Shown: positions 1,049 to 47,561, numbered from the stretch's first letter. The stretch: DNA of 64,000 bases from a virus (IMGVR_UViG_3300024272_000034), one strand, 5' to 3'. A program made the numbers and translations. The notes: a model not told the origin generated them from the letters alone.

Positions 1049-2158
1049 ATGAAATTCAATTCATCAGATAATTTATTAAACAAATTAAAGGAAACTAGTG
1101 AAGGAGCAAAACTTGCTAACACCGTTGATGAAATACATAAGTTATTATCTCATATAGGTAATAAAGGGGATGAGACTATAGCTTAGAGGGCTTCTGATTT
1201 TTTAACTTGGCTTTTATTTAATAAATCTATGAAGAATAAACTTTATCTTAGTGATGCAGTAAGAAATCAGTTATTAGAAAATCCTATAATTTTAGATGTA
1301 GTTAATTTTTTTAAGCAAAGCTCTTCAACAAGTCAAAATATTCAACAAAATCTTGCAAATTATAATGAAACCTTTTTGGGTGATTTCTACAATCAAAGAG
1401 GTATTACAACTGAACAAATGTTTGTAAAACTTATAAATAATTTTATTGTAAATGGTGAAAAAATTCAACATAGTGGAAATGATTAGGCTACTGTTTGGTT
1501 ATCTTCATTAGCAAAATATCTTGTTCAAGAGGGTGCTAATGAATTAGATAACTCATTCAAAAATTTGGTTAATGAATCAAATTTAATTAAAGAAAATAGA
1601 AAATTACGTTTTGCTTATAGAGATGTAAAAATAGATACAAGGTCTAACAATCCAAATGCAACAATTTAGTTTGGAGTTGAAGATGAAAAATTATAGGGTG
1701 ATTTACAAGCTGTATATTCAGTATTTTCTAGTGCAACAATTAAATCCAAAAATGATTTAAAAAATATTGATTTAGAGGAAGTAAATATTTTAAAAGCATA
1801 TTCAGCTTTTATCAATTATGCTCGTGGTAAAATTCCGCAATCAGAAATTAAAAATTTATTTGTTAGATATTATAAAGATAATAATGATGATTTTGTACAT
1901 AATCCATATATAACTTTACATATTAATCATATTATTTCAGTATATGCATTAACTGGTATGGGAACCACATTACAATCAGATTTAAATAGTATGCTTAAAG
2001 GTGCTCGCTATATAGTTGTTGTTGATAATATAAAATAGAAAGTAATTATTCATTCTACTCATGAAATCATTAATAAGATTTTATTAACAAAAAAATATAG
2101 CAAAAATATAGTGACAAATATTCAATTGAATTTAACAAGCAAAAGCTTGACAAAATAA
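1049..2158 (+). CDS. hypothetical protein, tail assembly chaperone candidate (369 aa with TAG read as sense)
   Basis: RBS AAAGGAGG upstream. The track ORF 1229..1486 and its flanks are in one frame, interrupted only by in-frame TAG. It ends at TAA 2156-2158. It lies between the major tail and tape measure genes. Confidence 0.5.
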
Positions 2159-2175
2159 AAAATTTTTGGTATAAT
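2147..2175 (+). promoter_or_regulatory. sigma-A type promoter TTGACA-N17-TATAAT
   Basis: Exact consensus -35 and -10 hexamers with a 17-nt spacer, upstream of the gene at 2205. Confidence 0.55.
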
Positions 2176-2204
2176 AATAAAAAAGAGTTAAAGGAGAAAA
2201 TAAT

Positions 2205-2729
2205 ATGGCAAAATTAGCATTTTCAAAACTTGGTTTAAAAGCCAATCAAGAAACTACTGTTATTTAGATTGATGAATACGATGTAGAAATTAAAAATTAT
2301 TTACCTATTAATGATAAGTTAGAATTAATTACGAATGTAATTAATAATTCAATTGATGAACATAATTATATGAATCCTGTTAAAGTAGATATGTATACTG
2401 AATTGGAAATTGTTGAGAAATATACTAATCTTACTTTTACTGATAAACAGAAAGAAGATATTGAAAAGTTATATGATTTACTTAAAGGAAATGGTATTAT
2501 TTTCAAGGTGTGTAATGCTATTCCAATAGAAGAGATTATGGAATTGCGCAACGCAATTAATCGGTCAGTAGATTCAGTTTATACATATCGTAATTCTGTG
2601 CTTGGTATTCTTGAGACAATTTCTACTGATTATTCAAATTTAGATTTTAATGCTACTGAAATACAGAAGAAGTTGGCAGACCCGCAGAACATGGAGTTAC
2701 TTAAGTCTGTATTAACCAAATTAGGCTAA
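2205..2729 (+). CDS. hypothetical protein, second chaperone candidate upstream of the tape measure gene (174 aa, 1 in-frame TAG)
   Basis: RBS AAAGGAGAAAA precedes the ATG. It is in frame with track ORF 2370..2729 across one TAG. Confidence 0.5.
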
Positions 2730-2767
2730 TAATATAACCTATTTTTTTAAAAAGAAATAGGAATAAT

Positions 2768-2800
2768 CGGATGTGAGAGATTGTTCTCACATCCGATTTT
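2768..2800 (+). terminator. rho-independent terminator
   Basis: CGGATGTGAGAG-ATTG-TTCTCACATCCG hairpin followed by TTTTTTATTTT. Confidence 0.65.
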
Positions 2801-2840
2801 TTATTTTGAACGAAAAGAGTGAAAGGAGTAATTATATATT

Positions 2841-12872: not shown

Positions 12873-15800
12873 ATGTCAAATAAAAATCTTGGAGAACAAT
12901 TGTGTGAAGCTGTTGATATAATTGCTAAAGCAAGAGTTGGCAGTGTAGCATATGACCAAACTATTATATGTACAATAACTAATGATACTTTAAAAGATAA
13001 AGGTCAATATAAAGTATCAAATGGTTCAGCTGAATTTGATGCTTATACTTCTAATACAGAATATCGTTCAGGAGACAATGTATATGTATCTATTCCAAGA
13101 AATGATTGGAATGAACAAAAATTTATTATAGGTAAATATACTAATAAAGATACTGGTGAATATTTTGTATATCAAAATCCTTTTAATACATTAGTTGATA
13201 TTACTGGCAATGTAATTAATGCTAATGTTCCTACTAATGAAAGTGGATTAGTAGCTAATAATCCTAATGAAGAATATATTATTTTATGGTCTTATAATAT
13301 AAATAATGAGGCTTTACGAAAAGAAAATGGTAATATTTTTAGTGGATATACTAGATTAGGATTACAAGCATCTTTTTAGTCACTTATAAATCCTTTTAGT
13401 TATAAAGAATATGAAAAAAATGATGATGGCAGTTTAAAACGCGATGAAGATGGATTATTAATAGTAAAGAATTAGGCTAATTCAAAAATTATTGATGGTG
13501 AATATGGTTTGCGGCTTCGTTTAAAAGTAACTCAAAACTAGACACTTAGTGAAGTTAAAAATGATGGTGCCGCAAATAAAGAGGTAATTTTTTATCTAAA
13601 TACCGCAGATATGAATGGTAATCCATATAATTTTAATAATTTTTTCTAGCAAGAAAAAGTTTTTGATGTTTCTGAATATGAATCAATTCATTCAATTTAG
13701 ATTGAATTTTATCAAATTAAAGATTCTTTCATTGATGCTTCTGGATATAAATTACCTTATTTGGATGAATGGGGAAATATAACTGCTCCAAATTTATATG
13801 TTAAAGATGTATATTTATGTCTTGGATATGATACTAGCGAGTTTGATGATGAAATGATTAAAGTATATACTTTAGATACTTTAACATATTCAAGAAAAAC
13901 AGAGCCCTTTATGGATAATGCTAAACGAATTGATTTGCGTTGGATACATAAAATGCCAGATGGTTCATTTAAATCAATTACTAAAGCAGATGCCGCAAAT
14001 TATAATTTTAAAATTTAGTGGTATAGATATCAATTAGGTTCTCCATCATCTGACCAATATTCAGATAAAGAGTGGATTTGGTTATCTGACCAAGAAACAG
14101 AAAATGGAAAAAATTATTATACAATTTAGGATGAAGATTGGTTAAATAATAATTAGCAATATAAAGGTAGTGAAAAATATCCCGGTTTCTTTAACACTTG
14201 GTTAATTCCAGATGTAGCTTTAAGTACGGAAATGGTTAAAGCAATTATATTTTTTAATGGAAAACCAATTAGAAGTAATATTGTTATTTTAACAAATGAA
14301 AATGAAGTTGTAAGTCGTCCAACAGTAGATGCTTTAGAAGCACTTACAATTCATTGTAATAATGGATTAGATGAAGCTGGGAATCCAATTTATTCTGAAA
14401 ATTATTTAATTTATAATGAAGGTAATGAATTAATTGATGAATCTTAGGCAAAACAACCACGGCAATTTGAATTAAAATTTGACCCAGAAGTTCCAACAGA
14501 AGATGATGAAACTGAAGGTTTAAAATATGCTAGATATGTGGAATGGCGCATTCCAAAAAAGAATACGATGATTGTAATGCCGCCAGATTATAAAGATAAT
14601 AATGCTTTAGAAGATATTACAGACCCAAATTATTATATTATTAGACGTAATGGTGTTTTAAACGCAGATAATAAATATGTTGTTTATAACAAACAATCTT
14701 TTAGAATAGATAATTATTATTCTGCTGAAAAATCAAATAATACTGTTTAGTGTACTATTGAAAAAGAACCAAATACTTTTTATATAGCAACTGTTGATTT
14801 ATTGTTTGGAGTTGCTGGTACTACTGGAACAGATACAACTTTAGTAATTAATTTTGATGATAGTAGTCTTGGAGCAATTGATTCTGCTATATCTGGTAAT
14901 ACAATTATTACTGCTAAATTATATGATAGTGAAAATAAAGATATTACACAAACAGTTATTAATCAAGATTGTGTTTTTGAATGGAAATGGAAAGGTAAAG
15001 AAGAATATCCTCATGAAAAAATACAAATACTTTCTCCGGAAGATTATTCAAATGAATTAAAAGAACAAGTACAAAAAAATCAATGCGTTATTAGTAATAC
15101 AAATAATCTACCTTTAGAACTTAATGAATGGAATATTCTTTAGTGTACTGTTACAGGATGGCAAGATTATCCTTTAGTAGCTTATTTTGCTATTCCATTA
15201 AAAAGAGACCCTGATAATGCAGAAAAGCGCACTTTATTTATGGAGGGCGCCACAAGAATTATCTATGATTCTGCTGGTACGCCTTCTTATTATAAAAATC
15301 CATATAAATTATTTTATTCTGAAGATATGACAGGAGAAAATCAAGAAGGTGAAATAGAAACTATTAATCAAATTAATCAATATTTAGAAGATTAGGATAT
15401 GATTAAAGATGATTATAGTATACGTTGGTAGCTTTCTTATCATCCAGATTTTTAGACTCTAAATTACTTACCTTCTATTGGAATTTCTAAAAATTATAAT
15501 GATGGTTTTAATTATAATATTGGATTAAAAGCTATTAATGTATATGTTAAAGGTTGCGAAGATTATATTACAATTAATTGTATAGATAAAAATGGAACTA
15601 TATTATGGTCTTAGCCTTTATTAATTTTACAAAATAAATATCCATCATCTATGCTAAATAAATGGGATGGTTCATTATCTATTGATGAAACGGAAAATGC
15701 TATTTTAGCAGCTAAAATTGCCGCAGGTAGTAAAGATTCTGAAAATAGATTTAGTGGTGTTATTATTGGTGATTGGGGCAATAAAAAAGAATATAAAGAA

Positions 15801-18240: not shown

Positions 18241-19152
18241 ATGGCAACAATGAGTAAAATGACTTTAATTAAACCTGTTGGTGATACAACAGTATCTTAT
18301 GAAGGAGAATATATTAAAGATGAATATGGAACAGAATCTAAATCATCAGCCTCTAGCGGAGATAGAGTAAGACGAGAAAGAAATTTTGTAGCACAACGAA
18401 AAGGACCTATAGATGAATGGGATGATGGAACTACTGGAAATTATGCGCGAATTGAAGGTGGTAATGGCTCAGAAACCCAAACTTTATATGGAAGATATAG
18501 ATATTAGTATAGAATTGGAAAATGGTATTGGAAAATTACACAATCATCTGAATTTAACGATCGTACTGGTACAGTAAGTTCTTTAAATGAAATTCCAGAT
18601 GATTATACAACAACTTCTAATGGTAATAGATATACTTATACTTATACATGGGATTCTCGTACAATAAAAGATGGATATTGGAAAGATGATATAGATGAAC
18701 CTTATGAAGATGAAAATGGAAATATTGTATAGCCAGAATGGATTGATACCAGCTATAAGGTTTATGATTGGGAGGAATATTTACAAATAGAAACATTAAC
18801 TATTGATTGGGATTCTTGGACTCCAGAATATACAAAAGAAGATATGAGTGTAGATTTTTATCCGCGTCCTAAAGAATTTTATTTTATTAATTGTGAACCA
18901 GGAAAGCAATGGAGAGTTGATTTAGGTCTTTAGACTTTAATTACTAATATTTATGAATTTCAAGAATATGCTAATTAGTGGTAGGCTTGGAAAAAATAGG
19001 AGGAATATAGCAATACTCCATCATTTGATTCTCCACTTTCAGCTGCTAATATTAATTCAATTTATTCTTCTCTTGGTCATTCAGGAGGATATTCTTCAGG
19101 AAATGAAGTTAGAGCTAGTATATTTAAAGGATTGGAATCTATCATTAATTAA
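18241..19152 (+). CDS. tail-associated hypothetical protein (303 aa, several in-frame TAG)
   Basis: ATG lies 10 nt after the previous stop. The frame is contiguous through TAG codons to TAA 19150-19152. Confidence 0.5.
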
Positions 19153-24419: not shown

Positions 24420-24755
24420 ATGGCAAAAACTATTATGTAGTTTAGATATTATAATGAAACTGATAAAACAAAAAATTATCCAAAAAATTTAGCAAAATCG
24501 CAATTAACATAGGGAAGTGTTTTTAAAGATTATTTACCTTTTACATATATGAAAATTTATGCTCCTACTGGAACAAAATTTTTTTTAAATGGAAATAATA
24601 ATTCTCCTATTTTGATTGGCACATCTGGAATATATGAATTAGACTTAGAAGGTATTGCTGAAATTACGAGTTTAAAATTTGATAATACTTCTATTGAGAA
24701 TATTAACAATAATGAAAATAGTTATTTAACTATTGATGTTATTTGTAATAAATAA
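24420..24755 (+). CDS. small tail-associated protein (111 aa, 2 TAG)
   Basis: RBS GAAGGAGG upstream. In frame with track ORF 24549..24755. Confidence 0.45.
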
Positions 24756-25808: not shown

Positions 25809-25834
25809 ATTTAATATAAAGGAGATAAAAAATT

Positions 25835-31000: not shown

Positions 31001-34000
31001 AGGTATTTATGGTTTTAGATATTGCATTGATAAAGATGATTTTATTGCATCTGAAGAATTTCCTACTTATGATGATTATGAATAGGAAATTAGTAATAGA
31101 TTTTTAAGATTAGTTAGATGGTTTGTAAAAAATAATCCTTCTCAAGCTACTAACGCTCCATTAGAAAATCCAATTGAATTTCCAACTTATATAATTAAAG
31201 GTATTAAAGAAACCGCTTATGCTAACTATAATGCTACTGAAATATTAGCTGGTACAGAAGTTAAAGAAGGACTTACATTTACAGTAGATTCTTCTGCCTA
31301 TAGAGTTGCAAAAATGCTTAGAGAGAGTGAAAATTATTTAATTTTAGACTCTATTTTCTATCATTATATTTTTATTGAACGACACAGTATGTTAGATAAT
31401 GTTGCTAAGAACACGTTCTGGAATACTGAAGATGGTATTCATTGGGAATTAACTAAAAACTATGATAATGATACAGCGGATGGAATTAATAATAGTGGAC
31501 ATTTAGCACTTGATTATGGCGTTGAAATTATGGATAATACAACTGATGGAAAAGAAATATTTAATGCTAGACCTTCATCATGGTTACATTTCGCACACGG
31601 ATGTTTATCATTAAGAGAAAAAATGTATTCTGCATTATTTAATACAAAGGATGATACTAATGCTTGGTCTGCTAATAAATACTTAGAATTATTTGAAAGT
31701 TGGCAAAATGCTATTCCAGAAATTTGTTGGATTCAAGATTTTTATAGAAAATATTTTAGACCTAATGATATTTATGGTGATGCATCTTATTTAGCGCGTT
31801 TAGCGAGTGGTAAAAAAACACATCAAAGAAAATAGTATGAACTTTATCAAGAACAATATCTTGATTCTGAATATAAAACATGTGCTAGACGTGGTGAAGC
31901 TATTTCCTGGCGTTCTATGTAGCCAAGTGATCCTGAAATTATGATTGATAATAAATATGTTTTAGGAGCTACTGTAAAAATGTATGCTGATGGATATTTT
32001 GCTATGGCTCTTGCTAATGGAGCTGGTACAGAAGAATCTGTAAATATTCATATAAGAGGTAAAAAAGGTTAGTTAATTAATTTCTCAAAATCTTAGGAAA
32101 CAAATTTTAATGATGCGACTTGTTATATATATGGTCCAAGTTTATATCAAGAATTTATTCATGCTGAATCAATATATCCTAGTTATATTACAGCTACAAA
32201 TGCAACTAAATTAAGAAAATTTAGTCTTGAACCAATGTATAATAGTTAGAAAATTATGCTTAAAACTAGCTTATCTTTTGGAGATAATTTAGAAGAATTA
32301 ATTTTAAAAGATTGTTTAAGTATTCTTGATGAAACTAGTGGAAAACCAACCAGTATTGACTTAAATTTAAAGAATTGTGTACGCTTAAAAAAGATTGATA
32401 CAACTAATAGTACTTTATTTGCAAGTTATGAAATTGCAGATGGTGCTCCATTAGAAGAATTTTATATTCATCAACCAACTGGTTTATATTTATAGAATTT
32501 AAGATATTTAAATAAAAATAAATTCAATATTGAAAATTATGATTCATTAACATCTATTTAGATTAATAATATTGATTATAATGATATTAATAGTATTGAT
32601 ATTTTAAATAATGTTTATAGACATAATAATTCAATTATATATAATTTAGAAAATGTAAAATGGAAGTTTAATAATGAAGATAATATCACCGATACTAATA
32701 TTCCACTATTGGATTATTTGTTAACTCAATCATTAGCAATTGCTGGCAAAACGAAAGCTTTATCTTTAACAGGTTCAGCAATTATACCATATGAAGCATA
32801 TGATGGAATTAACTTATTAAGTTTATATGAAAAATATGGATTAGATTCTGGTGAAAAAGATAATACTTATCCAAATTTAATTTTAAATTTCCTTGATAAT
32901 AATGAAAATTCTAGATTATATACTATCAATATTGAAAATGGTGATGGTTAGATTGTTTGGACAAGATAGGTAGATAATTTTAATACATTAACAAATGAGA
33001 TTTTATCCAATAGTGCTTTGGGAGCTTTTGACGCAACTGCTGCAATTGCTAAATCTTATAGCAATGAATTTGTTTATAATTTTGCCAATTCTTGGGAATA
33101 TATAATTAATAATGAAATTAAACCTATAGAACCATTAGATGAATAGGGAATGTATTAGTATTTAGATATGTCTAAATTATAGAATGTTAATGAATCTAAT
33201 ATTACTATTCGTCCAGTATATATAACAGATACTCGTTATTATACAATTCAAATATATGATGTGTGGGGAGAAAAAATTCATGAAGCAAAAGTTGAATATT
33301 TAGCTTCTTTTGATGAAGTGCGTCCTCCAGTTCTTCCATTAATGAATGATTCTAATTTGGAATTAGAAAAGACATATTATTTAAAAGGATATGGAACTGT
33401 TAGAACTGATAATAGTATCATTAATGAACAAGATTGGAAAGCCACAGCTGATTTAATTTTATATACAAAATTTGAAGAAAAAAATGTATATGATATTGAT
33501 TATTCTTCTTATTTAGATATAGATACAACTGGTACTGTATTAAATGGTTTAAAGAAAAATAAAAATGATGAATATATTTATTAGGGGCAGAAAATTGTAA
33601 TTCCAAAGTCTATTCAAACGATAGCAACTAAGGCTTTTGGTTTTGAACAAAACGATAAAGCACAAAGTAGTAAAACTAATTTAACAAAAGTTTTTTTTGA
33701 AACAAATAGTAATTTAATGTATATTAATAAAGCTGCTTTTGGTTATTCTAACCTTGAATATTTTGAATTTGTTAATTCTATTGAAAGAATTGGTGAACAA
33801 GCTTTTAGAGGATGTAATTTATAGGCTATTAATTATAATGGTATATTAAAATTACCAACTTCTTTAAAACAAATTGGTTAGCATGCTTTTAATAGTTCTT
33901 TCGGTTCAATAACATAGAATGTAGAATTATTCGTGCAGATCCCATCAACTATTATAGAAATAGATAGTTATGGTTTAGCTCACTGGGGACCAATAAAAGC

Positions 34001-34238
34001 TGATATTGCTATTGGTTCTTCCAATAGTTTTTCTAATTTAAGTTTAGAAAAAACTCAAGGTGGAGTACCAATTATAAGTAGTAACTATGGTAATGATAAA
34101 GATATTTGTAATATTTATTTTTATACTAAAAATTATAAAGATAATAGCATTATTAATGGTATTCTTATTGGTGAATTTTTTGATGATAAAAATTTAAGTA
34201 GTAATTATAATATTACTGTTCATTATATTGATTCGTGA
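28086..34238 (+). CDS. giant (2050 aa) host-recognition/tail protein with C-terminal BspA-type leucine-rich repeats
   Basis: RBS AAAGGAGAAA upstream. Ten track ORF fragments are in one frame joined only by TAG, ending at TGA 34236-34238. The C-terminal region (IPKSIQTIATKAFGF...INKAAFGYSNLEYFEF...IGEQAFRGCNL...LKQIGQHAF) matches the BspA-like LRR pattern. Confidence 0.65.
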
Positions 34239-34568: not shown

Positions 34569-36471
34569 ATGATTACAAAAGTAACGGAACAAAATTCTGT
34601 AAAATATCAAAAATTATTCAGAGAAGCTGAAGAATTATTAAAAAGTACTGGTACTGAAGATATTGTAGTTGGAGAAACAATTGACGATTTATATGAATAT
34701 TTTATTGCTTTTCCTTCAATCTTAAATGCGGCCGCTATTAAAGATGCTTCTGATGATAATAAAACTGGTGATCCTGAATATTACCAAAAGTATTTTACTA
34801 TATTACCTTTAGATGAACCAGTATTTGAAATTAATGCTGATACTCGTGCGATTACAATTCCACAGCAATTTAAAAGTATTGGTGTAACTGGTGATAATAT
34901 TGCGGAAATTGTTTTCTTTTCTATTGATAGATTCTTTGATGCTGTTGATTTTGGTGCTCCTGAAATTGAAGCTGTAATTGAATGGCATCGTACTACCGGA
35001 GATAATCAAGATACTTATGTTGATAAAGCTTATATAAAAGAATTAACATTAAAAGAAAATAAAGTTTTAATTGGATGGGTTATTGATGAACGCATTACTG
35101 AAGAGCCTGGTACAATTGAATTTGCTGTAAGATTGGTTATGAAAGACGAAAAAAATGAAATTATTTATAGTTTTAGTACATCAGCAGCAAAAGTAAATAT
35201 TAATAAAACACTTAATTTTTATCCAGATGCTACTGAAATTGATAATACGGCGATTGCGCAAGTTAAAGCTCGTATTTTAGCAACTAATTCGCCTGATGTA
35301 TCAAATGAAAATTCTTTAAATGCTCCAGCATATAATATTATAGAAGACGATGGTGATGAAATATCTACAAATATTGATTCTATGGTTGATGATGAAGGAA
35401 AACCATTAACATATTCTTATACTTCTACTAATGATTTTTATGCCGATTTTAATGATGAAGATAATGCTTTAGTAGTAAATGTTAAAGCTAGAAGTACTAA
35501 TGGTAATGGAGATGAACGTCTTCTTTATCGTTGGTTTAAATGGAATGAAAATGATAAAAACTGGCAAGCTTATCCTATTGGAGCTGTTGAAGCAGTTGAT
35601 GGAAATCAAACTATTATTGATTCTATTGGTAAATTTAAATGTGTAGCAATAGATAATGTTGGTATTCGTAGAGCGACAAAAGATAGCCAAATTCTTCATA
35701 TTCTTGGTCCATAGAAACCAGAAGTTAAAACTGCTGATGAAGGAGTTTATACTTCTATAATTTTAACCAATGAAGCAGATGGTATGGAATTAAATGTAAA
35801 ACCAGGTCATGAAAATGATGTATTTTATGTTGATAATTATGATATTAATAATAAAACAAAATTATCTTATGAATGGAAAAAGAGCAATAATCTTAATGAT
35901 ACTATTAAGATTGATATTGAAGATGCTTATGAACAAAAATATCAAGCAAAAGAAGAGGGCTATTATTATGGTTATGCTATAACTTAGCGTAATTTAAAAA
36001 TTGAAACATCTGATGAAGCTAGTATATATCGTGTAACTAAGCCTTTAATTCAACCTACTTTATAGTATACTGTATTAGGATTATAGAATGGTACTAATGG
36101 TAAAATTGGAGAAACTATTGAAATTGATTTTAGCACTTATGATGATGAAGGCAATGTATTAACAACTTATGCTTATGATACAATTGATTATTAGTGGTAT
36201 CGTTCTATGAATCAAAATCAAGGTGATAGTAGTTATCAAAAAGTTGAAGATGAAGACTATAATCAAGGACATCTTACAGCTACTGATAGAAAAATTTTAT
36301 TTACACCAAAAACTCCAGCAGCTTATAGAATTAAATTATTGGTTAAACGTAATGGATAGAGTATTCCTGAAAAAGATTTTGATGAAAATGATTCATCCAC
36401 TTGGCCAATGTTAAATCAATTATAGACCAATGGAACTTATGATGAATTAACTATTTCAATGAGCATAGATT
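34569..36471 (+). CDS. structural protein with Ig-like C-terminal region (634 aa); N-terminal domain paralogous to the gene at 36496
   Basis: RBS AAAGGATGAA upstream. Track ORFs 34569 and 35784 are joined through TAG. It ends at TAA 36469-36471. Confidence 0.55.
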
Positions 36472-36495
36472 AATCAATAAAGGAGGTTATAAGAT

Positions 36496-37059
36496 ATGAT
36501 AACCAATCCGGTTGATTATTACAATAAAATATTATAGATAAAAGATTTAAATAAACCTCAATATGCGCTTTTGCTTCCAACAGATGAAACAATTTATGAT
36601 ATTGATTTATCTACAAGAGAAGTTAAAGCACCTAAATTTTTAAGTTTACACAAAGATCATTATGCGGAAACCATTTATTTTAAAGTTGATAGATTTTTTG
36701 ATAATATGGATTTAGCAGATACAGTTTGTACTATTTAGTATGTAAATGATGGTGTAAAAAAACTTACAGGTGAAGCTGATGCGGGTCGCATTTATTTAGT
36801 ACCATTTTTTGATATTTTTACATATCGTGATGACAATAAAATGCTTATTCCTTGGCAAATTAGTGGTTTAGTAGCTAGAGCTCCTGGTAATATAACCTTT
36901 TCATTTAGATTTTATAAATTAAATGAAACAGGAGATTTTATTTATTGTTTAAATACTTCTCCTGCTACAAGTAAAATTCTTAATGGATTAGATTTAAAAC
37001 TTCCAGAAAATGATGAAGGTTATATGGAAGCAGGAATTGTAGATGATATTTATCATTAG
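36496..37059 (+). CDS. hypothetical protein (187 aa), paralog of the N-terminal domain of the gene at 34569
   Basis: RBS AAGGAGG upstream. Shared motif: LPxDEx[FY][ED]I[ND]xxTRx[IV]xxP ... AExx[FY]F.[IV]DRFFD.[VM]D[FL]. Confidence 0.5.
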
Positions 37060-37114
37060 ATAGATATTGTGAGTAAAGCTACTGATTTATATTGGATTGA
37101 AGTTGAATAAAAAT

Positions 37115-37177: not shown

Positions 37178-37483
37178 ATGGCAACTACTTTAACAATTAA
37201 TTATTCTGTAAATGGAGTAGAAAAGAATCTTATATTAACTGAAATTACTAGATGTTCTGAAGATTTTAAATCTGAATATGTTTCTTTAAATATTTCTTGT
37301 AATGATATTGTTGAAAATAGTATTTTAGGTGAATTAATGAATTCTATAATTTCTGATATCATTTTTATAGAAGACTCTGAAACTACCACTTTTACTAATT
37401 ATACTCGTCTTTATAATATTAATCGTTCTTATAAAGGTGAAGGTTCTTCTTTAACTTTTAATTTAAGAGAATATTTTAATTAA
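37178..37483 (+). CDS. hypothetical protein (101 aa, no TAG), first gene of the cassette
   Basis: RBS AAAGGTTAGG upstream. A clean ORF. Confidence 0.45.
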   Translation: MATTLTINYSVNGVEKNLILTEITRCSEDFKSEYVSLNISCNDIVENSILGELMNSIISDIIFIEDSETTTFTNYTRLYNINRSYKGEGSSLTFNLREYFN

Positions 37484-37519: not shown

Positions 37520-38689
37520 ATGGCAGCTGATGATAAAATATTAGCAACGTAGATTAGTACAAATTCTTCTTCCTGGTATCAAAGATTAAGAGCTATTTAG
37601 GCAAATAATAAAACAGGTATAGGCGGGTCTGCTTTATAGCAGACCGCCGACCCTGGTATCACTTCAGGAACGAAGATGACAGCAACACATATTAATAATT
37701 TTATTAATGCTTTAACAGCTTTAAAATCAAATGTATTTTTAGCTTATGCGGATTGGACTAATTATACTCCTTCTACTGTTTCTAGTGGTGGAAAAGCTAA
37801 TGCTTCTACTACATAGACTAAAATTAATAATATGTTAACATCACTAGAAAGTATATGTAGTAATTGTTAGACATATAGTACAAATAGTTATTCTAATACT
37901 TGTTCAAATAATGCTACAACTAGTTATTCAACCTATTCGGAAAGTATTGATAAATATAATTATTCTAATACATGTAAAACTACTTATAATTCCACAGAAT
38001 CTACAAACTCTACTTGGAGTGAAAGCTGTAAAACAACTTCTAATAGTACTAATAGCTATTGTTCTGATGCTAATTGTAGCGCTTATAGCGAGAATGAAAC
38101 TTGTGCAGAATTTTATGTTGGTAATAGCACTTATTCTACAGATAGCACTAGCTCAAATTCTACTTATGGAGTTGGAGATTCTACTTAGGCAACAGATGCT
38201 ACTTCTGTTTGTGCTACTTTATCAACTTATAATGATGAAATATCTTATAGTACAGATTGTAGTGATGGTTGTTGGGATTGTACTTTTCATTCTTATTGTC
38301 CTGCAGCTGAAGTAGCTACTTATAGCGTCGGAGAGTGTTCAACTAATGCTACTAATTCTGAAAATTCAACAGAAGGAGTTTGTAGCACTTGTAGTACTAA
38401 TTCTACTGATTTTTATTGTAATGAAAACTCTTGTACTGAACATACAAATAGAGGTACATATTCAAATCATTCACAATGTAGTACTTGTGGAAAAAACAGT
38501 ACATATAATGATACTTGTCAAACTTGTGAGACTGATTCAACCACATCAAATACAACTTATACTTAGTCAAATTCTACATATACTAACACTAATGATGGTT
38601 ATAGTACATATTCAAAAAAAGCTACATATGGAACATATACTAATACAAGTGGTAATTCAACATATTAGACTTATACGGTAAAAAATTAA
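37520..38689 (+). CDS. Cys/Ser/Thr/Asn/Tyr-rich protein (389 aa, 22 Cys, 9 in-frame TAG); candidate rSAM substrate
   Basis: RBS AAAGGAGGAA upstream. Codon-by-codon translation gives an ordinary ~100-aa N-terminal region, then ~290 aa of low-complexity S/T/N/Y-rich sequence with CxxC and Cx2-6C spacings (SICSNCQTY, SYCSDANCSAY, DCSDGCWDCTFHSYCP, CSTCSTNS, CNENSCTEH, CSTCGKNS, CQTCETDS). It ends at TAA 38687-38689. Confidence 0.6.
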
Positions 38690-38719
38690 TTGAAATGAGA
38701 TAAAGGAGAAAATATTTTA

Positions 38720-40078
38720 ATGTTACAAGATAGAGAAACAATTATTTTATATACTACAGCAGTATGTAATTTAAATTGTACTTATTGTTTTATTGATAAA
38801 AATCCAAGTTTAAAAAAGATAGATCAATGGCTTGATGATAGTTTTTTAAAAACTCCAGATTATTATTTTGAATATGCAAAAAAAGCCGTTTTACAAGAAA
38901 AACTAAAAGAAGTATAGATTTGGGGTGGAGAACCTTTTTTGGGTATGCATAGAGCCTATGCAACAATAGATAAATTTATTAATTATTTTCCAAATTTAAA
39001 AAATTTTATGACTTCTACAAATTTTGTATCTCATTGTTTTTTTGAAGAATTTTATGGACTTCTTGATATTTTTAGAAAGCATCCAAATAGAAATTTTACA
39101 TATAGTTTATAGTTATCATTAGATGGTGTAAAGGAAATAAATGATATTAATAGAGGTAATGGAGTTACTGATCGTTTTATTATTAATTTTGAAAAATTTG
39201 TTAAAGAATTACAAACTTTATTACCAAACAATTTAACATTAAAAATGCATTTAAAGCCCACTATTGATACAAATTCTTTGAAAAAATTATAGACTAAAGA
39301 ACAAGTTTTTGAACAATTTATCTTTTTTGAAAGCTTCAATGAAGTATATTTGAAATATAATAAAAAAAATAATTTACTATTTTCACTTCCAATTCCTAAT
39401 ACAGCTTGCCCATCTCCTCATACTCAAGAAGATGGAATAATGTTTGCAAATTATTGTAAAATAACAAGAGAGCTTGAAAAAGAAAATAAAAATAATAAAA
39501 TTTTTAAATTTTATAATAATATTACAAGCTTTACTCCAAGAAGAAAAATTCAATATGACAAACTTTCATTATCAGGATATTGTCAAGGTCATTGTGGTAA
39601 TGGAAAAAGAGCTATTGGTCTTTTACCTAACAATATGGTTTCTTGTTGTCATAATGGTTTTGTTGATTTGCTAGCTGAATATAAAAAGAATGTATTAACA
39701 AATAGTGAACATATGGATAATGTTACTATTGAAAAAAGTTTATTTAAAAATAAACGTAATACTTTAATTTTCCCTTATGATAGTAAAGAATTTGAAATGT
39801 ATCAAAAACAATTAGAAGTTTTTTATCAAAATGATGATACTGCCAAAATTTCTAATTGTGCTTCTTTAATTAAATTATTGGCTGATTTTGAACAAATTGA
39901 TAAAAAATATCAAGATAAAAAAGAAGCTGTTAAAGGTGCTTATTTTATTTTTAATACTACATCATATTGTGTTAGAGATAATTTAGGTGTGACTGGAAGC
40001 ATCTATATGTATCCTGTTGGTTTAATTAAATTATTGCTAAATGGAGCTAGAGAATATATTGAGGAAGGATGTAATTAA
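38720..40078 (+). CDS. radical SAM enzyme with C-terminal Cys-rich (SPASM/twitch-like) region (452 aa, 3 TAG)
   Basis: CNLNCTYC (CxxxCxxC) near the N-terminus and GGEP in IWGGEPFL. C-terminal cluster CQGHCGNGKRA...SCCHNGF. Track ORFs 38720 and 39350 are in frame across TAG. Confidence 0.7.
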
Positions 40079-41467
40079 ATGGCAAAGTGTTTAAATTTTT
40101 AGGAAGAAAAAGATGTTATTTTATGGTCATTAATTAATGATACATTTGGAAGACTTTTTTCTAAAGAAAAAAAAGAAGATATTGAACATGATATGGGGTT
40201 AGAAATTTATATAACCCCTGAATGTAATTAGAATTGTTCTTATTGTTATTTATGTAAAAATGGTGATGAACTTTATCCTAAAGAATTAAGAAATCCTACA
40301 ATAATTTTAAATAATTTAAAAATTATGTTAGATTATTGTATTGATAATAATTGGAATCCTGGAAGATTTGATTTTTTTTCTGGAGAAATTTGGGATACTG
40401 ATTTAGGTTATAATGTTTTAAGCATTACAGAAGAAGCAATAGAAAGAGGTTTTCACCCTAGACTAATTGTAATTCCATCAAATTTTAGTTTTATTTTAAA
40501 TGAAGAAGCTAAAAATAGAGTTGAAAAATTTATGGAAAAATGTAGACAATTTAATATAAAGCCATGTTGGTCTTGTTCTAATGATGGTTTATTGTTAGAT
40601 TTAGAGACAAGACCATTTAATTCAGATGAATTAAATGCAAAAAAAGATACTGAAGATTATTATAAAAAATTATTTGAATTTTGTAAAAAATGGAATTTAG
40701 GTTTTCATCCAATGGTGGCAGCACACGGAATTGAAAAATGGTCAGAAAATTTTTTATGGTGGATGTCAGAATTAAAGAAATATAAATTTGAAAGAAATTC
40801 TTCAATAATGTTTTTAGAAGTTAGAAACGATGATTGGACAGATGATAAAATTTATCATTATTTAAAATATTTAAATACTAGTATTAATTATTTAAATGAT
40901 GAATGTATTAATTTAAATACATTGTCTTTTGAAGATTATGTTAGAAAAACTAATAAAAATATTAAATACAATTATACACCTGTTATTTTAGAAAAATCAA
41001 GTTTATAGCCTGGATGCACTATTCATAGATCTTTAGTTATTCGTTTAGGTGATTTAGCAATAGTTCCTTGTCATAGAACTTCTTATGAAGAATTTATTAT
41101 AGGACATTTTAAAGTAGAGAATAATAAAATTATAGGAGTTACAGCTAAAAATATTCAAATAATGAATTAGGTATGGCTAAATAATATGAGTGGTAATGCT
41201 AAATGCACTAATTGTCCTTATAGCAATTACTGTATGAAAGGATGTTATGGTTCTTAGTTTGAATCTACTGGAGAATTATTATATCCAATAGAATCAGTAT
41301 GCAATTTATATAAAGCAAGAGCAATATTTATTTTTTATAAATATTTAAAAATGGGTATTTATAGAGAAGATAATCCCGAGGATAAAAAATATTTTGATTT
41401 TATTCAATCAATTAAAGATACGAAGGAGTTTAAAAAATGGTACAAAATTGTTTAGGAATTGATTTAA
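40079..41467 (+). CDS. second radical SAM enzyme with C-terminal Cys cluster (462 aa, 5 TAG)
   Basis: Start overlaps the upstream stop (TAAATG). The rSAM motif is CN(TAG)NCSYC, i.e. CxxxCxxC if TAG is sense. C-terminal CTNCPYSNYCMKGCYGS resembles SPASM. Track ORF 40325..41008 is in frame. Confidence 0.65.
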
Positions 41468-42036
41468 TTAATATTTATGAAAATCTTATCATAAATGGAT
41501 TAAATGTAGAATTAGCAAAAGATATTGAAAAATATTTGATTTATTTTTTAGACAATAACACTAATGAAAATTAGTTATTATTATATAATTTATTAAATAT
41601 TTTAAAACGTCAATAGAATACATCAATTCTTCTAAATTTTTTAATTCAAGAAGTTGAATTAAAGTTATTAAGATTAAGTTTTTCTAATAATGATATAAAA
41701 AATAATAAAGATTGTTATAATATTTCATCTTGTCAAAAAAATGAATCTAAAGAAGAATTAAAGAAAATTTTAAAAGTAACTAATAAAGATTTATTCCCTC
41801 CAAAAGGGACTACAACTCGTATTATTAATAAAAGAAAAGAAGAAAATGAAGAACATGAATATGTTTTAGAGATAGATGATCAAGGTAATGTTTTAGAAAT
41901 TTTAGAACATTATATAACAAAAAATGATGCAGATTCTATTGATATATTAAATGATTCTCCTTTAAGCAAACTTAAAGAAAAATATCTTAAAGAAGATAAA
42001 GAAAATAATTCTTTAACAGAAAATGATTTAGAATAA
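41437..42036 (+). CDS. hypothetical protein (199 aa, 2 TAG) overlapping the rSAM gene end
   Basis: Frame +2 relative to the previous gene. Acidic C-terminal half. Function unknown. Confidence 0.45.
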
Positions 42037-42061
42037 TATTAATAATTTAAATATTTCTAAA

Positions 42062-43138
42062 ATGGGATTAGGAATTATGCGTCATAATTCTAATCAACAA
42101 TATACAAAACAACTAATAGAATATGCTTTAAATAATAAAATTAATTATTTTGAAGCTTGTGATTTCTATTTACAAAACGCTTGTGAAATACGTCTTGGGG
42201 ATGCTTTAAAATAGCATCCTCGGACTTCATATAAATTATGTGATAAACTTCCATTATCTACAATTCCTTATTTTATTCAAAAAAATAAAAATTGGAATTT
42301 AAATGATTATTTTAATAATCAATTAGCAAAATGTAGAACTGATTATTTTGATGTTTATTTGATTTAGGCTTTAGATGAACGTAATTTTAATTACTTGGAA
42401 AAATATCAAATTATTGATTTCTTTTTAAAACAAAAAGAACAAGGAAAAATTAAATTATTGGGTTTTTCTTTTCATGGAAAAGTTGATATTTTAAAAAAAT
42501 TATTAGAAATGAAATGTTGGGATATCGTTTAGTTTCAATTAAATTATTATGATTGGATTTTAGGTGAGGCGAAAGAATTATATTTTTTAACAAAAGAATA
42601 TGATTTACCTATTATTACAATGGGACCAACTAAAGGCGGATTATTAATAAATAATTTACCTAAAAAATCATTAGATAGATTAAAAGAAAACAATATTAAT
42701 CCAGTCTATTTATGTTATTCTTTTTTAGAAACTTTAGACAACGTTAAAATTATTTTATCAGGAGCAGAAACTTATGAAATGATTAAAGATAATTTAAATT
42801 ATTTTGAAAATGAATCTCATAAATTAACTCCAGAAGAGTGGTAGCATATTAAACAAAATATTCAAGATTATCAAGAATAGAGTTTAATTCAATGTACGGG
42901 ATGTCGTTATTGTGTTCAAAGATGTCCTGCTAATTTACCAATAGATAAAATTTTTAAAGAATATAATAATTTTATTCAATCTAAAGATTTATAGTCAAGA
43001 GAATTTTTATATTAGAATATTCATAGTTCTAACTCTACACAGAATTGTAAAAATTGTGGTCAATGTGTAAAAATTTGTCCGCAACATTTAAATATTCCAG
43101 AAATTTTTCATAAACAAATTTTCCCAGTAAGGAGATGA
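42062..43138 (+). CDS. aldo/keto reductase-fold oxidoreductase fused to a 2x[4Fe-4S] ferredoxin domain (358 aa, 7 TAG)
   Basis: N-terminal AKR-like pattern (LGIMR...INYFEACDFY...LGDALK...KLLGFSFHG...ITMGPTKGGLL). C-terminal CTGCRYCVQRCP and CKNCGQCVKICP. Ends at TGA 43136-43138. Confidence 0.65.
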
Positions 43139-43142
43139 AAAA

Positions 43143-43553
43143 ATGGTAGTATCTGAATTAGTAGCTACAATTTTTCAAGTTTGTATAATTCCATTATTGG
43201 GTGTATTAACTACTTTTTTTGTAAAATGGGTTAATTCCAAAAGCGCAGAAATCTCAAATAAAATTGATGATGAAACATTAAATAAATATTTAAATATGCT
43301 TACTGAAACAATTAATACTTGCGTTTTAGCAACCAATTAGACATATGTTGAAAGTTTAAAACAACAAGGAAAGTTTGATGCGGAAGCGCAGAAAGAAGCA
43401 TTTAATTTAACTTGTTCAGCAGTAATGGATATTTTAAGTGAGGACGCAAAAGAATATTTAACTTCTGCTATTGGAGATTTACAAATTTATATTACAAAGA
43501 AAATTGAAGCTGAAGTACATACAAATAAAGTTACACCTTGTGTAAATCAATAA
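43143..43553 (+). CDS. small membrane protein (136 aa, 1 TAG), N-terminal TM helix
   Basis: RBS AAGGAGATGAAAAA upstream. Hydrophobic N-terminus LVATIFQVCIIPLLGVLTTFFV. Last gene before the terminator. Confidence 0.5.
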
Positions 43554-43620: not shown

Positions 43621-44314
43621 TTATAAGTAAGCCAACGTTCACGAATTAAATCATGAGATTTTTTGGGAAAATATAATACTTCATCATTTTCAAAAGTTAA
43701 ATGGTCAGTATCAATAATCTTAATTTCACTTAAATTAATCAATAAACTTGTGCTAAAAATAAAAATTGCGGATGTTGGTTCAATGGAGTTATTGCTTTTT
43801 CAAAAGATGAGCGCAATGACTAACCATCAAACATTGTTCCATTTTTTAAATGATAACATAAACAACGTTTTACAATGTTAATATAATTAACTTGACTTGA
43901 GCGTATTCTTCTTTCACCTTCCGCAGTTTTAATTACCAAACTATCTTCTCTTATCTCTTTTTTAATTATATTAAATAATTCAAACAATTCTTCTTTTTCT
44001 ATTGGTTTTAAAAAATAATGATCTGCATGCACTTTATAAGCAGGATAAGCGAGAGAAGGATCTTCTCCAATAAAAATAAAATAACTATTTGGGTCTATTT
44101 TATCCATGCGATGACTTAACTCATATAGATTTTCTGATGAATCAGTGTCCATAATATAAACATCAAAACTTGCAGGAACAACAAGTAAATCTTCTGATTT
44201 ATCAAAAATTGATACTTTTGCCACAGACTTAGATTCTATTAAATATTCTTGAATCATCTCACGCAATTCATTTAAATATGTTTTGTTGTCATCATAAATA
44301 GCAATAGAGAGCAT
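43621..44314 (-). pseudogene. LytTR-family response regulator (receiver + LytTR DNA-binding domain), interrupted by an apparent -1 frameshift
   Basis: Track ORF 43820..44314 encodes the receiver-like N-terminus and the start of LytTR (VIKTAEGERRIRSSQVNYINIVKRCLCYHLKNGTMFDG). The domain continues through a TAG. It ends in another frame (LINLSEIKIIDTDHLTFENDEVLYFPKKSHDLIRERWLTYNRI, stop at 43621-43623). The shift falls in a T-rich tract (CAATTTTTATTTTTAGC). The cause could be a true frameshift, programmed slippage or a sequencing error. Confidence 0.5.
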
Positions 44315-44501: not shown

Positions 44502-44626
44502 GGATGAAAAATCAGACAAAAAATGTGTGAGTGTTTCTTGTTTAAAAATCTGAAACAATTTTTATATAGTAATGGAAGGGTAAGAGAAAAATAAAAAAAA
44601 TGAATAAATACCTTGGAGGTGAATAT

Positions 44627-45103
44627 ATGAATTATCAATATAATCAGTAGCAGGTGAGTCCACCGCAGAATTAGACGACTCAGCAGTATTCTTACCAACG
44701 ACAAGTTCCTTATACTTCTGGAACTTGGAATGCGAGAGTCAGACCGGTTTCTTCAATTGAAGAAGTAAGAGCATCTTCAATTGATTTTGATGGCTCAATT
44801 TTTTATTTCCCAGATGTTGCTAATAAAAAAATCTATACTAAATTTATTAATTTAGATGGCTCTGTGGCAATTAATGTATATGAGTTAAAAGAAATGCCAA
44901 CAGGTTAGGCAGCAGATTCATCTTACATTACAAGAGAAGAATTTGAAAACGTAATTATGTAGTTAAAAATGATGTATAATAATTCTTCTGCGCCTTCTAC
45001 TCCAATAGAAGAATAGCAATAGGTATAGTAGTAGATGAATAGTAATTAGTTTGCGGCACCACCCGCACAATAGCAACATAATGTTTCGCCATTACAATTT
45101 TAA
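44627..45103 (+). CDS. hypothetical protein (158 aa) with Gln-rich C-terminus encoded by mixed CAA and TAG codons
   Basis: RBS GGAGGTGAA upstream. The C-terminus reads TAG CAA TAG GTA TAG TAG TAG ATG ... GCA CAA TAG CAA, which is QQQVQQQ...AQQQ if TAG=Gln. Ends at TAA 45101-45103. Confidence 0.55.
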
Positions 45104-45116
45104 GGAGGTATGAAGA

Positions 45117-45362
45117 ATGGCACAAGTTGATCCGAGACAATTAATAGCTATGATTAGAAATGGTCAAAATCCTCAACAACTTATGTTAAGTGTTTTAGAG
45201 ACGATGCAAGATACTCCTTTTGGAGCCAATTTATTGAATCTCGCTCGCAATGGTTAGACTGCGGAGATTGAAAAAATTGCTCGGAATATCACATCTCAAA
45301 GAGGTATGGATTATGATAAAGAGTTTAATGCCTTTAAACAATAGTTTTTTGGCTTTAAATAA
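45117..45362 (+). CDS. small hypothetical protein (81 aa, 2 TAG)
   Basis: RBS AAGGAGGTATGAAGA upstream. Ends at TAA 45360-45362. Confidence 0.45.
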
Positions 45363-45399
45363 ATAAAATATTTTTTTTAATTAAAGGAGGGTTTCTTTT

Positions 45400-46194
45400 A
45401 TGTTTAATTCTAATGGTTACAGTTTGGCAGATATCGTTGCCGCAACAGGTGGCGGTAGAGAGAATTGCGGCGGCTTCGGCGGCTGGGGCGGAGATGGATG
45501 GTGGATTATCCTCTTATTCTTGCTCTGGGGTAACAACGGCTGGGGCGGCAATCAAGGTGGACGTGGAACAGTTCGTGAAGAAATTGCTTATGGTTTTGAT
45601 ATGAACGGTTTAGAAAATAGCGTCCGTGGTGTTCAGCAAGGTATTTGTGATGGTTTCTATGCCATGAATACTGGTATGTTAAATGGATTTAGTAACATTC
45701 AAAATACTCTATGTCAAGGTTTCTCTGGTATCAATCAAGGTACAGCTCAGTAGACATTTGATTTATCTACTCAGTTACATGGTATGGCAGCTGATAATGC
45801 GGCTTGTTGCTGCGAAACTCAGCGCGCTATTGAAAGAGGATTTGCTGAAACCAACTATAACATGGCAACTCAAGCTTGCGATACTCGTAGAGCAATTGCT
45901 GATAGCACTCGTGATATTATTGACAGTAATAACGCAGGTGTTCGTTCTATTTTAGATTTCTTAACTCAGGATAAGATTGCTACTCTTACCGCAGAAAATC
46001 AGAGTCTAAAATTCGCAGCTTCTCAGGCAGCTCAGAACGCTTTCATTGCAGCTAATCAGGAAGCTCAAACCGCAGAACTTATTCGCAGACTTGATACCCC
46101 ATGTCCTATTCCCGCTTATGTAGTTCCTAATCCTAATTGTTGCTATCCATCTTATGGATATGGGTATGGCAACACTGGATGCTGCGGTGGTTAA
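45400..46194 (+). CDS. Gly/Trp/Cys-rich protein with one hydrophobic segment (264 aa, 1 TAG)
   Basis: RBS AAAGGAGGG upstream. Track ORFs 45400 and 45784 are in frame across the TAG at 45751. N-terminus GGFGGWGGDGWWIILLFLLWGNNGWGGNQGG. Cys clusters CCCETQ and NPNCCYPSYGYGYGNTGCCGG. Confidence 0.55.
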
Positions 46195-46219
46195 TTAACA
46201 AAGGAGGTAAAAAATCTGT

Positions 46220-46639
46220 ATGGAAATTATTGCTAATGCTTTATAGACAGTTCCAGCAAATCAGACTGTTTATTTCACAGATACCGCCGTATGCGGTGGC
46301 CCATCTATGACTCATAGAGCTGGTAGTGGTTTAATTACTCTTAGAGGAATTACTAATCAATGTAGAGCAAGATTCCGCATCACTTTTGGAGCAAATATTG
46401 CTGTTCCAACAGGAGAAACAGTTGGACCAATTTCATTGGCTATTGCGATAGAGGGTGAACCTCTTCAAGCTACTACAATGATTGAAACACCAGCGGCTGT
46501 TGAAGAGTTCTCAAATGTTTCAAGAACTACCTTTATTGATGTTCCTCGTGGATGTTGTGTAAGTGTAAGTGTAAGAAATGTAAGTGATATTCCAGTAAAT
46601 GTACAAAACGCAAACTTAATTGTTGAACGTGTTGCTTAA
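46220..46639 (+). CDS. BclA C-terminal-domain-like (C1q/TNF-like) protein (139 aa, 1 TAG)
   Basis: RBS AAGGAGGTAAAAAA upstream. The C-terminus ...NVQNANLIVERVA and the internal RFRITFGANI...GPISLAIAIEGEPL pattern resemble the BclA exosporium CTD, which ends ...IIIEKVA. The assignment is by motif recall only. Confidence 0.4.
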
Positions 46640-46657
46640 TGAAAGGAGGTCTTATAA

Positions 46658-47305
46658 ATGGAGAAAAGATTAGAACATATGAAAGAATCTTTAATGGCTT
46701 GCGTTGAAAGTCAATTAACTCATTTAGATACAGTTGATACTAAAGAATTAGGTGAAGCCATTGATATGATTAAAGACCTTGAAGAAGCAATCTATTATTG
46801 TACTATTACAAAAGCAATGAAGGAACAGGATAAAGGAGAAAAAGAATCTCATAAATATTATCCAGTAATGTATAATAGAGATATGGATAGAGATATGGGA
46901 AAAATGTATTATGAAAACCCAAATTATATGGGTGGTAATGATACAAAACGTCAATATTCATCTGGAAATGGAGGAGGCAACTCCTCCTCCATGAGTAATT
47001 CTTCTGGAAGCGGAGGAGGTAATTCATCCTCTGGAAATACTGGTTCAAAACAATATAGTGAAACAGAATATAATTTAATGCGCGACCAGCGTGAAGGACG
47101 TAGTCCTCAGTCGCGCCGCATGTATATGGAATCAAAAGAAATGCATTCAGATAAAGCAACTCAAATGCGTGAATTAGAAACTTATATGCAAGAGTTAACT
47201 CAAGATGTAGTTGAAATGGTTGAAGGTGCAACTGTTGAAGAAAAGCAGTATTTAAGTAAACGAGTAGCAGCTCTTGCAAACAAATTGGCTCAATTAAATG
47301 ATTAA
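46658..47305 (+). CDS. hypothetical protein with Gly/Ser/Asn low-complexity core (215 aa, no TAG)
   Basis: RBS AAAGGAGGTC upstream. A clean ORF. The core repeats NGGGNSSSMSNSSGSGGGNSSSGN. Confidence 0.5.
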   Translation: MEKRLEHMKESLMACVESQLTHLDTVDTKELGEAIDMIKDLEEAIYYCTITKAMKEQDKGEKESHKYYPVMYNRDMDRDMGKMYYENPNYMGGNDTKRQYSSGNGGGNSSSMSNSSGSGGGNSSSGNTGSKQYSETEYNLMRDQREGRSPQSRRMYMESKEMHSDKATQMRELETYMQELTQDVVEMVEGATVEEKQYLSKRVAALANKLAQLND

Positions 47306-47561
47306 CATTAATGGTGAACAATGGAGAGTGTTTTTAACCTCTCCATTTCACCCTGCTTTAAAACGCAGTGATGGTGCTTATACTCTAGGATGCTGTGATG
47401 ATGTAACAAAAACAATTTATATAAGTAATGATGTAAGTGATAAATATTTAAAAAAAGTTTTATGCCACGAACTCACTCACGCCGCAATGTTTAGCTACAA
47501 CGTAGATTTGACTTATGAGCAAGAGGAAGTTCTCGCTGATATTATAGCAACATATGGATAG
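47298..47561 (+). CDS. small HExxH-motif protein, putative minimal zinc metallopeptidase (87 aa)
   Basis: LCHELTHAAMF contains HExxH. Overlaps the previous gene by 8 nt. Confidence 0.4.
   Translation: MININGEQWRVFLTSPFHPALKRSDGAYTLGCCDDVTKTIYISNDVSDKYLKKVLCHELTHAAMFSYNVDLTYEQEEVLADIIATYG

Follow-up and report, generated by a model that had tools for sequence, protein, structure and literature searches.

The viral sequence IMGVR_UViG_3300024272_000034 was analysed as a single stretch of 64,000 nucleotides with 28% GC, here called the window. At its left edge lies a gene for a major tail protein of the type found in large long-tailed Bacillota phages (Enterococcus EF1, Bacillus Tsamsa), followed on the plus strand by a block of late genes that includes a tail tape measure gene, tail/baseplate/fibre-like genes and a holin gene, while replication and nucleotide metabolism genes occupy the minus strand further to the right (Table 1). 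An initial annotation of the window had proposed that the amber codon TAG is reassigned, most likely to glutamine (Gln), throughout the late module at positions 1049-47561, each gene being broken into fragments of one frame by TAG only and ending at TAA or TGA.

Under the standard code, stop-to-stop open reading frames (ORFs) of 100 aa or more account for 62% of the window; once TAG is read through the figure is 96%, in 68 ORFs, and the longest grows from 837 to 3310 codons. Across the 26 plus-strand genes of 1049-47642 (14,767 codons) we counted 234 in-frame TAG codons (1.6%) and no TAA or TGA, both of which are frequent in the other two frames; TAA or TGA ends every one of these genes. The frame is kept through each interruption, as had been claimed, and the TAG-only pattern was confirmed, except that 24 of the 26 genes rather than all of them carry the codon (37178-37483 and 46658-47305 are free of it). 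Reading through TGA brings coverage to only 65% and no in-frame TGA was seen, so that a code 4 type of recoding was rejected. Read-through of TAA also reaches 95%, but as an artefact of AT-rich DNA, with 237 overlapping short ORFs of which the longest is 858 aa.

The tape measure gene shows the pattern most strikingly: all 78 of its in-frame stops are TAG, against 179 of 864 (~21%) in the other two frames, a result with a chance of ~1e-53 by hand calculation (0.21^78). Its TAG density had been put at 3-4% of codons and is in fact 2.4% (78/3306). The three peptides quoted as examples of Gln-compatible contexts were found in this gene at nt 4575, 5034 and 5160, with TAG where Q had been read. 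Along the genes TAG is evenly distributed, the last ten codons holding 9 against 10.7 expected, and it is therefore no hidden terminator. The assemblies of JGI, ENA and Logan, which are independent and come from several samples, match the window at 99.98-100% identity, hence the pattern is not an assembly artefact. JGI gene calls split the late genes, while those of ENA and Logan already give them at full length, which indicates that a recoded table is in use there. The profile searches that had been recommended gave Pfam and PHROG matches that continue across TAG codons, among them phrog_4211 on tape measure residues 42-524, across many TAG (E 3e-42). In at least 35 genes of the window TAG thus acts as a sense codon, and nowhere could it be detected as a terminator.

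Recoding also reaches beyond the proposed range. The block itself is recoded, but it extends to the left of the window, and TAG-containing genes also lie beyond 47561: to the right of 47642 these are the 47669-50263 set, 57170-57952 and 61284-61643, with 11 TAG together. Exact-protein matches place the window within a 99,463-bp JGI contig, and a six-step walk along IMG/VR contig 3300018878_000164 gave a composite of 137,847 bp (window coordinates -9,848 to +127,999). The join to the IMG/VR contig is an identical 3,212-nt overlap, and three more assemblies tile the right end of the window at 100% identity. Beyond +128 kb a metagenome scan returned distant tail-fibre relatives only; the nearest homologue of the last composite gene (87% identity) is on a 3.8 kb contig, and the protein of 61724-62683 had no exact-match record. 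The 128 genes called on the composite end with TAA (110) or TGA (18). On the plus strand, 37 of 47 genes contain TAG, with 289 among 21,330 codons (1.35%) and TAG making up 34% of Gln-type codons; on the minus strand the corresponding values are 29 of 81 genes, 63 of 20,799 codons (0.30%) and 10%. The late genes are TAG-rich as proposed, yet the recoding is genome-wide and biased, the TAG density of plus-strand virion genes being four to five times that of the genes on the minus strand. No TAG at all was found in NrdD, both DNA polymerase III alpha pieces, the helicases, the topoisomerases or the ligase. The two most TAG-dense substantial genes of the TAG-poor minus strand are the endolysin gene, which adjoins a membrane protein gene and has the highest density on that strand, and a second GIY-YIG gene.

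The residue at TAG

In order to determine which amino acid TAG encodes, the proteins of the window were aligned with X at each TAG, which avoids bias, and the codons opposite were read in related IMG/VR loci. The substitution matrix for scoring candidate residues was built from the columns of these alignments that contain no TAG, and every column had a weight of one. Over the 79 window TAG columns with sense-codon partners, Gln was the best fit, its margins over Lys, Glu, Arg and Ser being 23.3, 24.4, 37.6 and 48.8 natural-log units, and it was already the best fit with standard-code relatives alone. The codon most commonly facing a window TAG is CAA. Gln occupies 11 of the 20 conserved TAG columns (at least 5 partners and at least 60% agreement), and Ser, Lys, Asp and Asn occupy one each. 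The TAG codons of the relatives themselves share columns with Gln (23 Q and 27 TAG in one column, 8 and 8 in another, 18 and 6 in a third), and in a reverse test on the first locus set they stood at 8.0% of window Gln cells and at no more than 1.7% of those of any other residue.

Individual proteins agree with this. Columns 103, 154, 330 and 386 of the tape measure protein, all TAG in the window, are Gln in most relatives, and in RuvC, residue 121 (TAG) lies opposite a Gln of the E. coli protein, the first in its KSQVQ motif; the homologue alignment suggested by the initial annotation thus came out in favour of Gln. Of 99 distant homologues of the aldo/keto reductase, most of them bacterial, 98 have Gln at residue 170, likewise a TAG here; the close homologues (P0001-P0021) were left out as possibly code-15 translations. 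Judged from these alignments, the residue at TAG is shown to be Gln, as had been predicted. Where bacterial homologues of this reductase have their catalytic His, the phage has a TAG, and 20 of 20 close relatives have Gln. The Gln-rich protein of 44600-45103 has the highest TAG density of the window (6.6% of codons), TAG alternating with 7 CAA and 5 CAG.

A long-arm tRNA(CUA) and the relatives of the phage

The search for a tRNA with a CUA anticodon, which the initial annotation had advised, found one in the same phage but none inside the window, where ARAGORN and Rfam (E up to 1) detected no tRNA of any kind; none was found either in 137 related loci around two marker genes (2.35 Mb). The tRNA(CUA) belongs to a minus-strand cluster of six at 124.1-126.2 kb (Lys-UUU, Gly-UCC, Leu-UAA, CUA, Ser-UGA and Thr-UGU), and of the four called genes beside it three are without TAG and one has a single TAG. 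It folds into a normal cloverleaf with a normal D arm, a 27-nt variable region containing a CCUG/CAGG stem, an A1.C72 mismatch and G73. A motif search of the 138 kb found neither RF2 nor GlnRS, and the composite lacks a GGQ(H/N/S)(V/I)N release factor motif, the latter being a weak test. Two related phages carry identical 95-nt AT-rich tRNA-like elements (L158 1224-1318 and L193 39-133), to which ARAGORN gives a two-base 'anticodon'.

Related loci yielded 13 distinct CUA tRNAs, 11 of which have G73 together with a 1:72 pair that is weak or mismatched. Within the family, all Gln tRNAs (9/9) and Trp tRNAs (6/6) have A-U or U-A at 1:72 and G73. By contrast, G1-C72 plus G73 is the combination seen in 37 of 39 Ser tRNAs, and A73 is almost universal in Leu and Tyr tRNAs. 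The glutaminyl-tRNA synthetase (GlnRS) of E. coli reads a weak 1:72 pair, G73 and U35. Classical Gln-inserting amber suppressors of this organism are supE, a tRNA-Gln with a CUA anticodon, and su7, a tRNA-Trp that once given a CUA anticodon is charged with Gln by GlnRS. With both of these the phage tRNA shares the CUA anticodon with its U35, a weak or unpaired 1:72 and G73, features that make charging of tRNA(CUA) with Gln plausible. It differs from supE and su7, which are cellular, short-armed and only partially suppressing, in being phage-encoded, 95 nt long, endowed with an extra arm and predicted to decode hundreds of sense TAG codons. In many Bacillota Gln-tRNA is formed by an indirect route, via GluRS and GatCAB.

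The long arm is found in four of the 13 CUA tRNAs, those of this phage, of phAss-1 (91 nt) and of loci L180 and L238. All are 91-95 nt long, with an arm stem of 3-5 bp, a YUGA-containing loop (CUGA or GUGA) and G73; position 1:72 is unpaired in three of the four and a weak A-U in phAss-1, and their arm and acceptor stems differ in a compensatory manner. In the phage-recoding literature retrieved by term search, including the phAss-1 and Borges papers, "variable arm" does not occur. We tentatively propose, while regarding it as doubtful, that tRNA(CUA) is a member of a conserved, so far undescribed class of long-arm phage tRNA(CUA) present in four divergent recoded phages, phAss-1 among them.

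Hundreds of relatives were found in IMG/VR, and the homologous structural region follows the standard code in some and is TAG-recoded in others. We compared both kinds among the related loci L059-L137 and L323-L374. In standard-code relatives ORF coverage is 98-99% without read-through and TAG ends 18 of 209 ORFs, whereas in recoded relatives coverage rises from 32-73% under the standard code to 92-100% once TAG is taken as sense. The closest NrdD genes lie in bins from gut metagenomes that carry the labels Bacilli, Mollicutes, Erysipelotrichaceae or Clostridia, where many of the contigs are possibly phage, and a host search in genomes with the lysin gave no match.

Among annotated GenBank entries, the major tail protein is matched best by phAss-1 (OQ749652; 52% identity over half the protein), one unannotated fecal contig scoring higher. 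This phage of 135,976 bp, filed by NCBI under "Caudoviricetes code 15 clade", uses TAG as Gln in 41 ORFs, carries three tRNA-Sup-CTA genes and no synthetase, and has metagenomic relatives both with and without recoding (PMC10607447, Babkin et al. 2023). The two phages are alike as large gut phages with a long tape measure protein, late genes on one strand and replication genes (NrdD, NrdG) on the other; in both, the genes for tape measure, tail, dUTPase and holin use TAG as Gln, both carry a long-arm CUA tRNA, and no phage aminoacyl-tRNA synthetase was found in either. On the other hand, phAss-1 has 36 tRNAs, with two suppressor genes beside NrdD, while in the composite of the phage studied here six were found, only one of them CUA, none near NrdD and none within ~61 kb of the right end of the window. 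It is also only a distant relative, with 28% GC and a 3306-aa tape measure protein. The kinship to the phAss-1 group was judged from the major tail protein and the similar strand layout only. The only nucleotide-level match to GenBank phages is the NrdD gene, in two Thomasclavelia phages, and by nucleotide comparison the phage clearly lies outside the proposed Phassvirus genus (>80% nucleotide identity).

With the crAss-like, Lak, Garnet, Amethyst and Agate phages it shares TAG as Gln, TAA and TGA as stops, and a low GC content. As in recoded gut phages generally, structural and lysis genes are recoded and core replication genes are not, recoding extends to a homing endonuclease gene nested in an early gene, the suppressor tRNA lies in a standard-code-compatible region, and standard-code and recoded lineages coexist. 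The bias towards late and lysis genes and the recoded homing endonucleases of gut phages were described by Borges et al. (bioRxiv 10.1101/2021.08.26.457843). The present phage nevertheless represents a different lineage, with kinship to the phAss-1/Enterococcus EF1 type of large Bacillota phages, and it differs further in the long arm of its suppressor and in that neither RF2 nor GlnRS turned up in the motif search.

Gene content, alternative explanations and timing

Among the annotated genes (Table 1), those from 37520 to 43553 form a cassette in the late operon, with radical-SAM-type genes and a reductase directly followed by the holin gene, which looks like a protein- or peptide-modification system in the virion/lysis module. 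The response-regulator-receiver-like gene sits on the opposite strand within the late block. The minus-strand block of 50300-64000 also encodes lysozyme-like and RecJ-like proteins, and TAG occurs there only in 57170-57952 and 61284-61643. DNA polymerase III alpha is split into an N-terminal piece (58176-59600, with PHP and the start of the polymerase domain) and a C-terminal piece (54540-56852), both on the minus strand. The GIY-YIG/NUMOD3 gene located between them looks like an intron or mobile insertion; no group I intron was detected in the window (Rfam, E up to 1).

Table 1. Genes and tRNA(CUA) of the phage with their in-frame TAG codons, in window coordinates.
Feature	Position	Strand	TAG codons	Remarks
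Late gene, 369 aa	1049-2158	+	5	Downstream of major tail protein
Late gene, 174 aa	2205-2729	+	1	phrog_30570 match crosses its TAG
Tail tape measure, 3306 aa	2841-12761	+	78 (2.4%)	PHROG tape measure families; TAA end
Tail/baseplate/fibre-like gene	12873-18230	+	28	
Tail/baseplate/fibre-like gene	18241-19152	+	6	
Tail/baseplate/fibre-like gene	19362-21608	+	17	Conserved Gln/TAG columns
Tail/baseplate/fibre-like gene	21574-24402	+	12	PHROG tail protein family match; conserved Gln/TAG columns
Tail/baseplate/fibre-like gene	24420-24755	+	2	Conserved Gln/TAG columns
Tail/baseplate/fibre-like gene	24781-25809	+	4	
Tail/baseplate/fibre-like gene	25835-27964	+	2	
Tail/baseplate/fibre-like gene	28086-34238	+	25	
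Late gene	34569-36473	+	7	
Late gene	36496-37110	+	3	
Late gene	37178-37483	+	0	
Ser/Thr/Cys/Asn-rich protein, 389 aa	starts 37520	+	8	
Radical SAM gene	38720-40078	+	3	Pfam Radical_SAM match spans TAG
Second radical-SAM-type gene	40079-41467	+	6	CxxxCxxC motif; no Pfam match
199-aa protein gene	41437-42036	+	2	
Aldo/keto reductase fused to 4Fe-4S domain	42023-43138	+	8	Pfam Aldo_ket_red and Fer4, spanning TAG
Holin, 136 aa	43143-43553	+	1	phrog_13712, E 2e-30
Response-regulator-receiver-like gene	43739-44314	-	1	Pfam Response_reg match below curated cutoff
Gln-rich protein, 167 aa	44600-45103	+	11	No Pfam/PHROG match
Small late gene	45117-45362	+	2	
Small late gene	45400-46194	+	1	
Small late gene	46220-46639	+	1	
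Small late gene	46658-47305	+	0	
Small late gene	47298-47642	+	1	
Gene	47669-48106	-	2	
RuvC	48173-48664	-	4	Pfam RuvC positions 1-144/148; match spans three TAG
dUTPase	48661-49356	-	1	Pfam match
Gene	49603-49875	-	1	
Gene	49865-50263	-	1	
Replication/nucleotide block: NrdG, NrdD, guanylate kinase, two DNA polymerase III alpha pieces, PIF1-like helicase	50300-61051	-		TAG-free except GIY-YIG gene
GIY-YIG/NUMOD3 homing endonuclease	57170-57952	-	1	Pfam
119-aa gene	61284-61643	-	1	Cut by standard-code callers into 49-aa and 69-aa pieces
Second GIY-YIG gene	71,637-72,626	-	6	Outside window
Endolysin (Amidase_2 and VgrG3-like lysozyme domain)	81,303-82,934	-	11	Outside window
tRNA(CUA), 95 nt	125,074-125,168 (L243 15857-15951)	-		~61 kb past right end of window

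Altogether, these data are best explained by a tailed phage of at least 138 kb with a long non-contractile-type tail and low GC, from a Bacillota gut community, which uses code 15 with TAG as Gln, concentrates the recoded codons in late and lysis genes and encodes its own tRNA(CUA), TAA and TGA being the only remaining terminators; we assign this explanation a probability of about 0.92. Several points weigh against it. For this phage, TAG as Gln was deduced from nucleic-acid sequence; proteomic proof of Gln at TAG exists for crAss-like phages only (PMC9523058, Peters et al. 2022). The sole tRNA(CUA) found is atypical in its length of 95 nt, its 27-nt variable region, its C3-G70 in place of G3-C70 and the lack of an encoded CCA; its similarity to other tRNAs gave no isotype, and its charging with Gln is inferred. 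Since 29 of the 81 minus-strand genes hold TAG, the split between early genes and recoded late genes is not clean. The composite is open at both ends, and the rest of the genome may hold a release factor, a synthetase or more suppressor tRNAs. Finally, the timing role discussed below is a published hypothesis carried over from other recoded phages.

If TAG were a real stop, the late genes would be pseudogenes of a decaying element, split genes or the product of sequencing error. Standard-code callers such as that of JGI do fragment them, but the asymmetry of stop types already refutes this reading: 234 of 234 interruptions are TAG with the frame kept at each and without any TAA or TGA, domain matches cross the codons, independent assemblies agree on the sequence, and dozens of related phages have the same TAG pattern. 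It is less credible still that TAG stands for pyrrolysine, which enters through nothing other than the ARAGORN label 'Pyl', the default of that program for any CUA anticodon. The alignments favour Gln and not Lys-like residues, the variable region has 27 nt and not 3 nt, the compact form of tRNA-Pyl is missing, and the Pfam results for the part of the composite scanned (the window and its right extension to ~71,000) contain no pylS/pylBCD-type match.

A sense codon for another residue, be it Glu, Lys or, in view of the long tRNA arm, Ser or Leu, would account for the many TAG columns that face Glu, Lys, Arg, Ala or Asn, Gln being the majority residue in only 18 of 79. Ser also stands at two TAG columns, where it is the residue in 6 of 6 and in 13 of 53 sense partners, respectively, and the only CUA tRNA found has the type II-like arm of Ser, Leu and Tyr tRNAs. 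We nevertheless consider such a residue very unlikely in the face of the log-likelihood deficits of Lys, Glu and Ser, the predominance of Gln in conserved columns and the near-invariant reductase Gln opposite TAG, and with A1.C72 and G73 the tRNA is unlike the Ser, Leu and Tyr tRNAs of the family. An equally slim chance is left to a variant in which TAG is Gln but the host supplies the suppressor, as an amber suppressor strain or a code-15 host, so that the phage tRNA(CUA) would be dispensable or non-functional. The window has no tRNA, the phage tRNA(CUA) is structurally odd, and suppressor tRNAs occur in only 35-40% of recoded phages (bioRxiv 10.1101/2021.08.26.457843). Yet core replication genes without TAG fit a host that stops at this codon, the long-arm CUA tRNA has been kept in four divergent phages with compensatory changes in arm and acceptor stems, and those hosts of recoded phages that have been described follow the standard code (PMC10607447; bioRxiv 10.1101/2021.08.26.457843).

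Under code 15 with a phage-encoded suppressor, and if the host behaves as those of published recoded phages, it would use the standard code and stop at TAG, and early genes would be translated at once. The suppressor tRNA would then build up, charged with Gln by host enzymes, as its fit to the Gln identity set would allow, and full-length virion and lysis proteins containing TAG would appear only after this build-up. In this way recoding would time late and lytic functions, or hold them back like a safety catch, as in the late-gene timing model for recoded phages (bioRxiv 10.1101/2021.08.26.457843). The TAG-free replication core, the TAG-dense tail genes, the TAG-rich endolysin and the recoded homing endonucleases fit the published proposal that virion and lysis expression is delayed by recoding.

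The recoding is thus real and had been correctly interpreted, while both the phenomenon and the timing model are already published, including for relatives. Only the long-armed suppressor tRNA, a molecule of predicted function, is possibly new. If it is charged with Gln, a type II-shaped tRNA would be an unusual solution to the identity problem, and the arm might aid escape from host tRNA nucleases or tune competition with RF1. Gene calling under the standard code fragments the late genes, therefore annotation, protein clustering and prediction of host and function need translation table 15 for this lineage. The phage adds to the code-15 phages a low-GC Bacillota phage lineage that is only distantly related to phAss-1, and the presence of standard-code and recoded relatives within one family offers close comparisons for how recoding arises.

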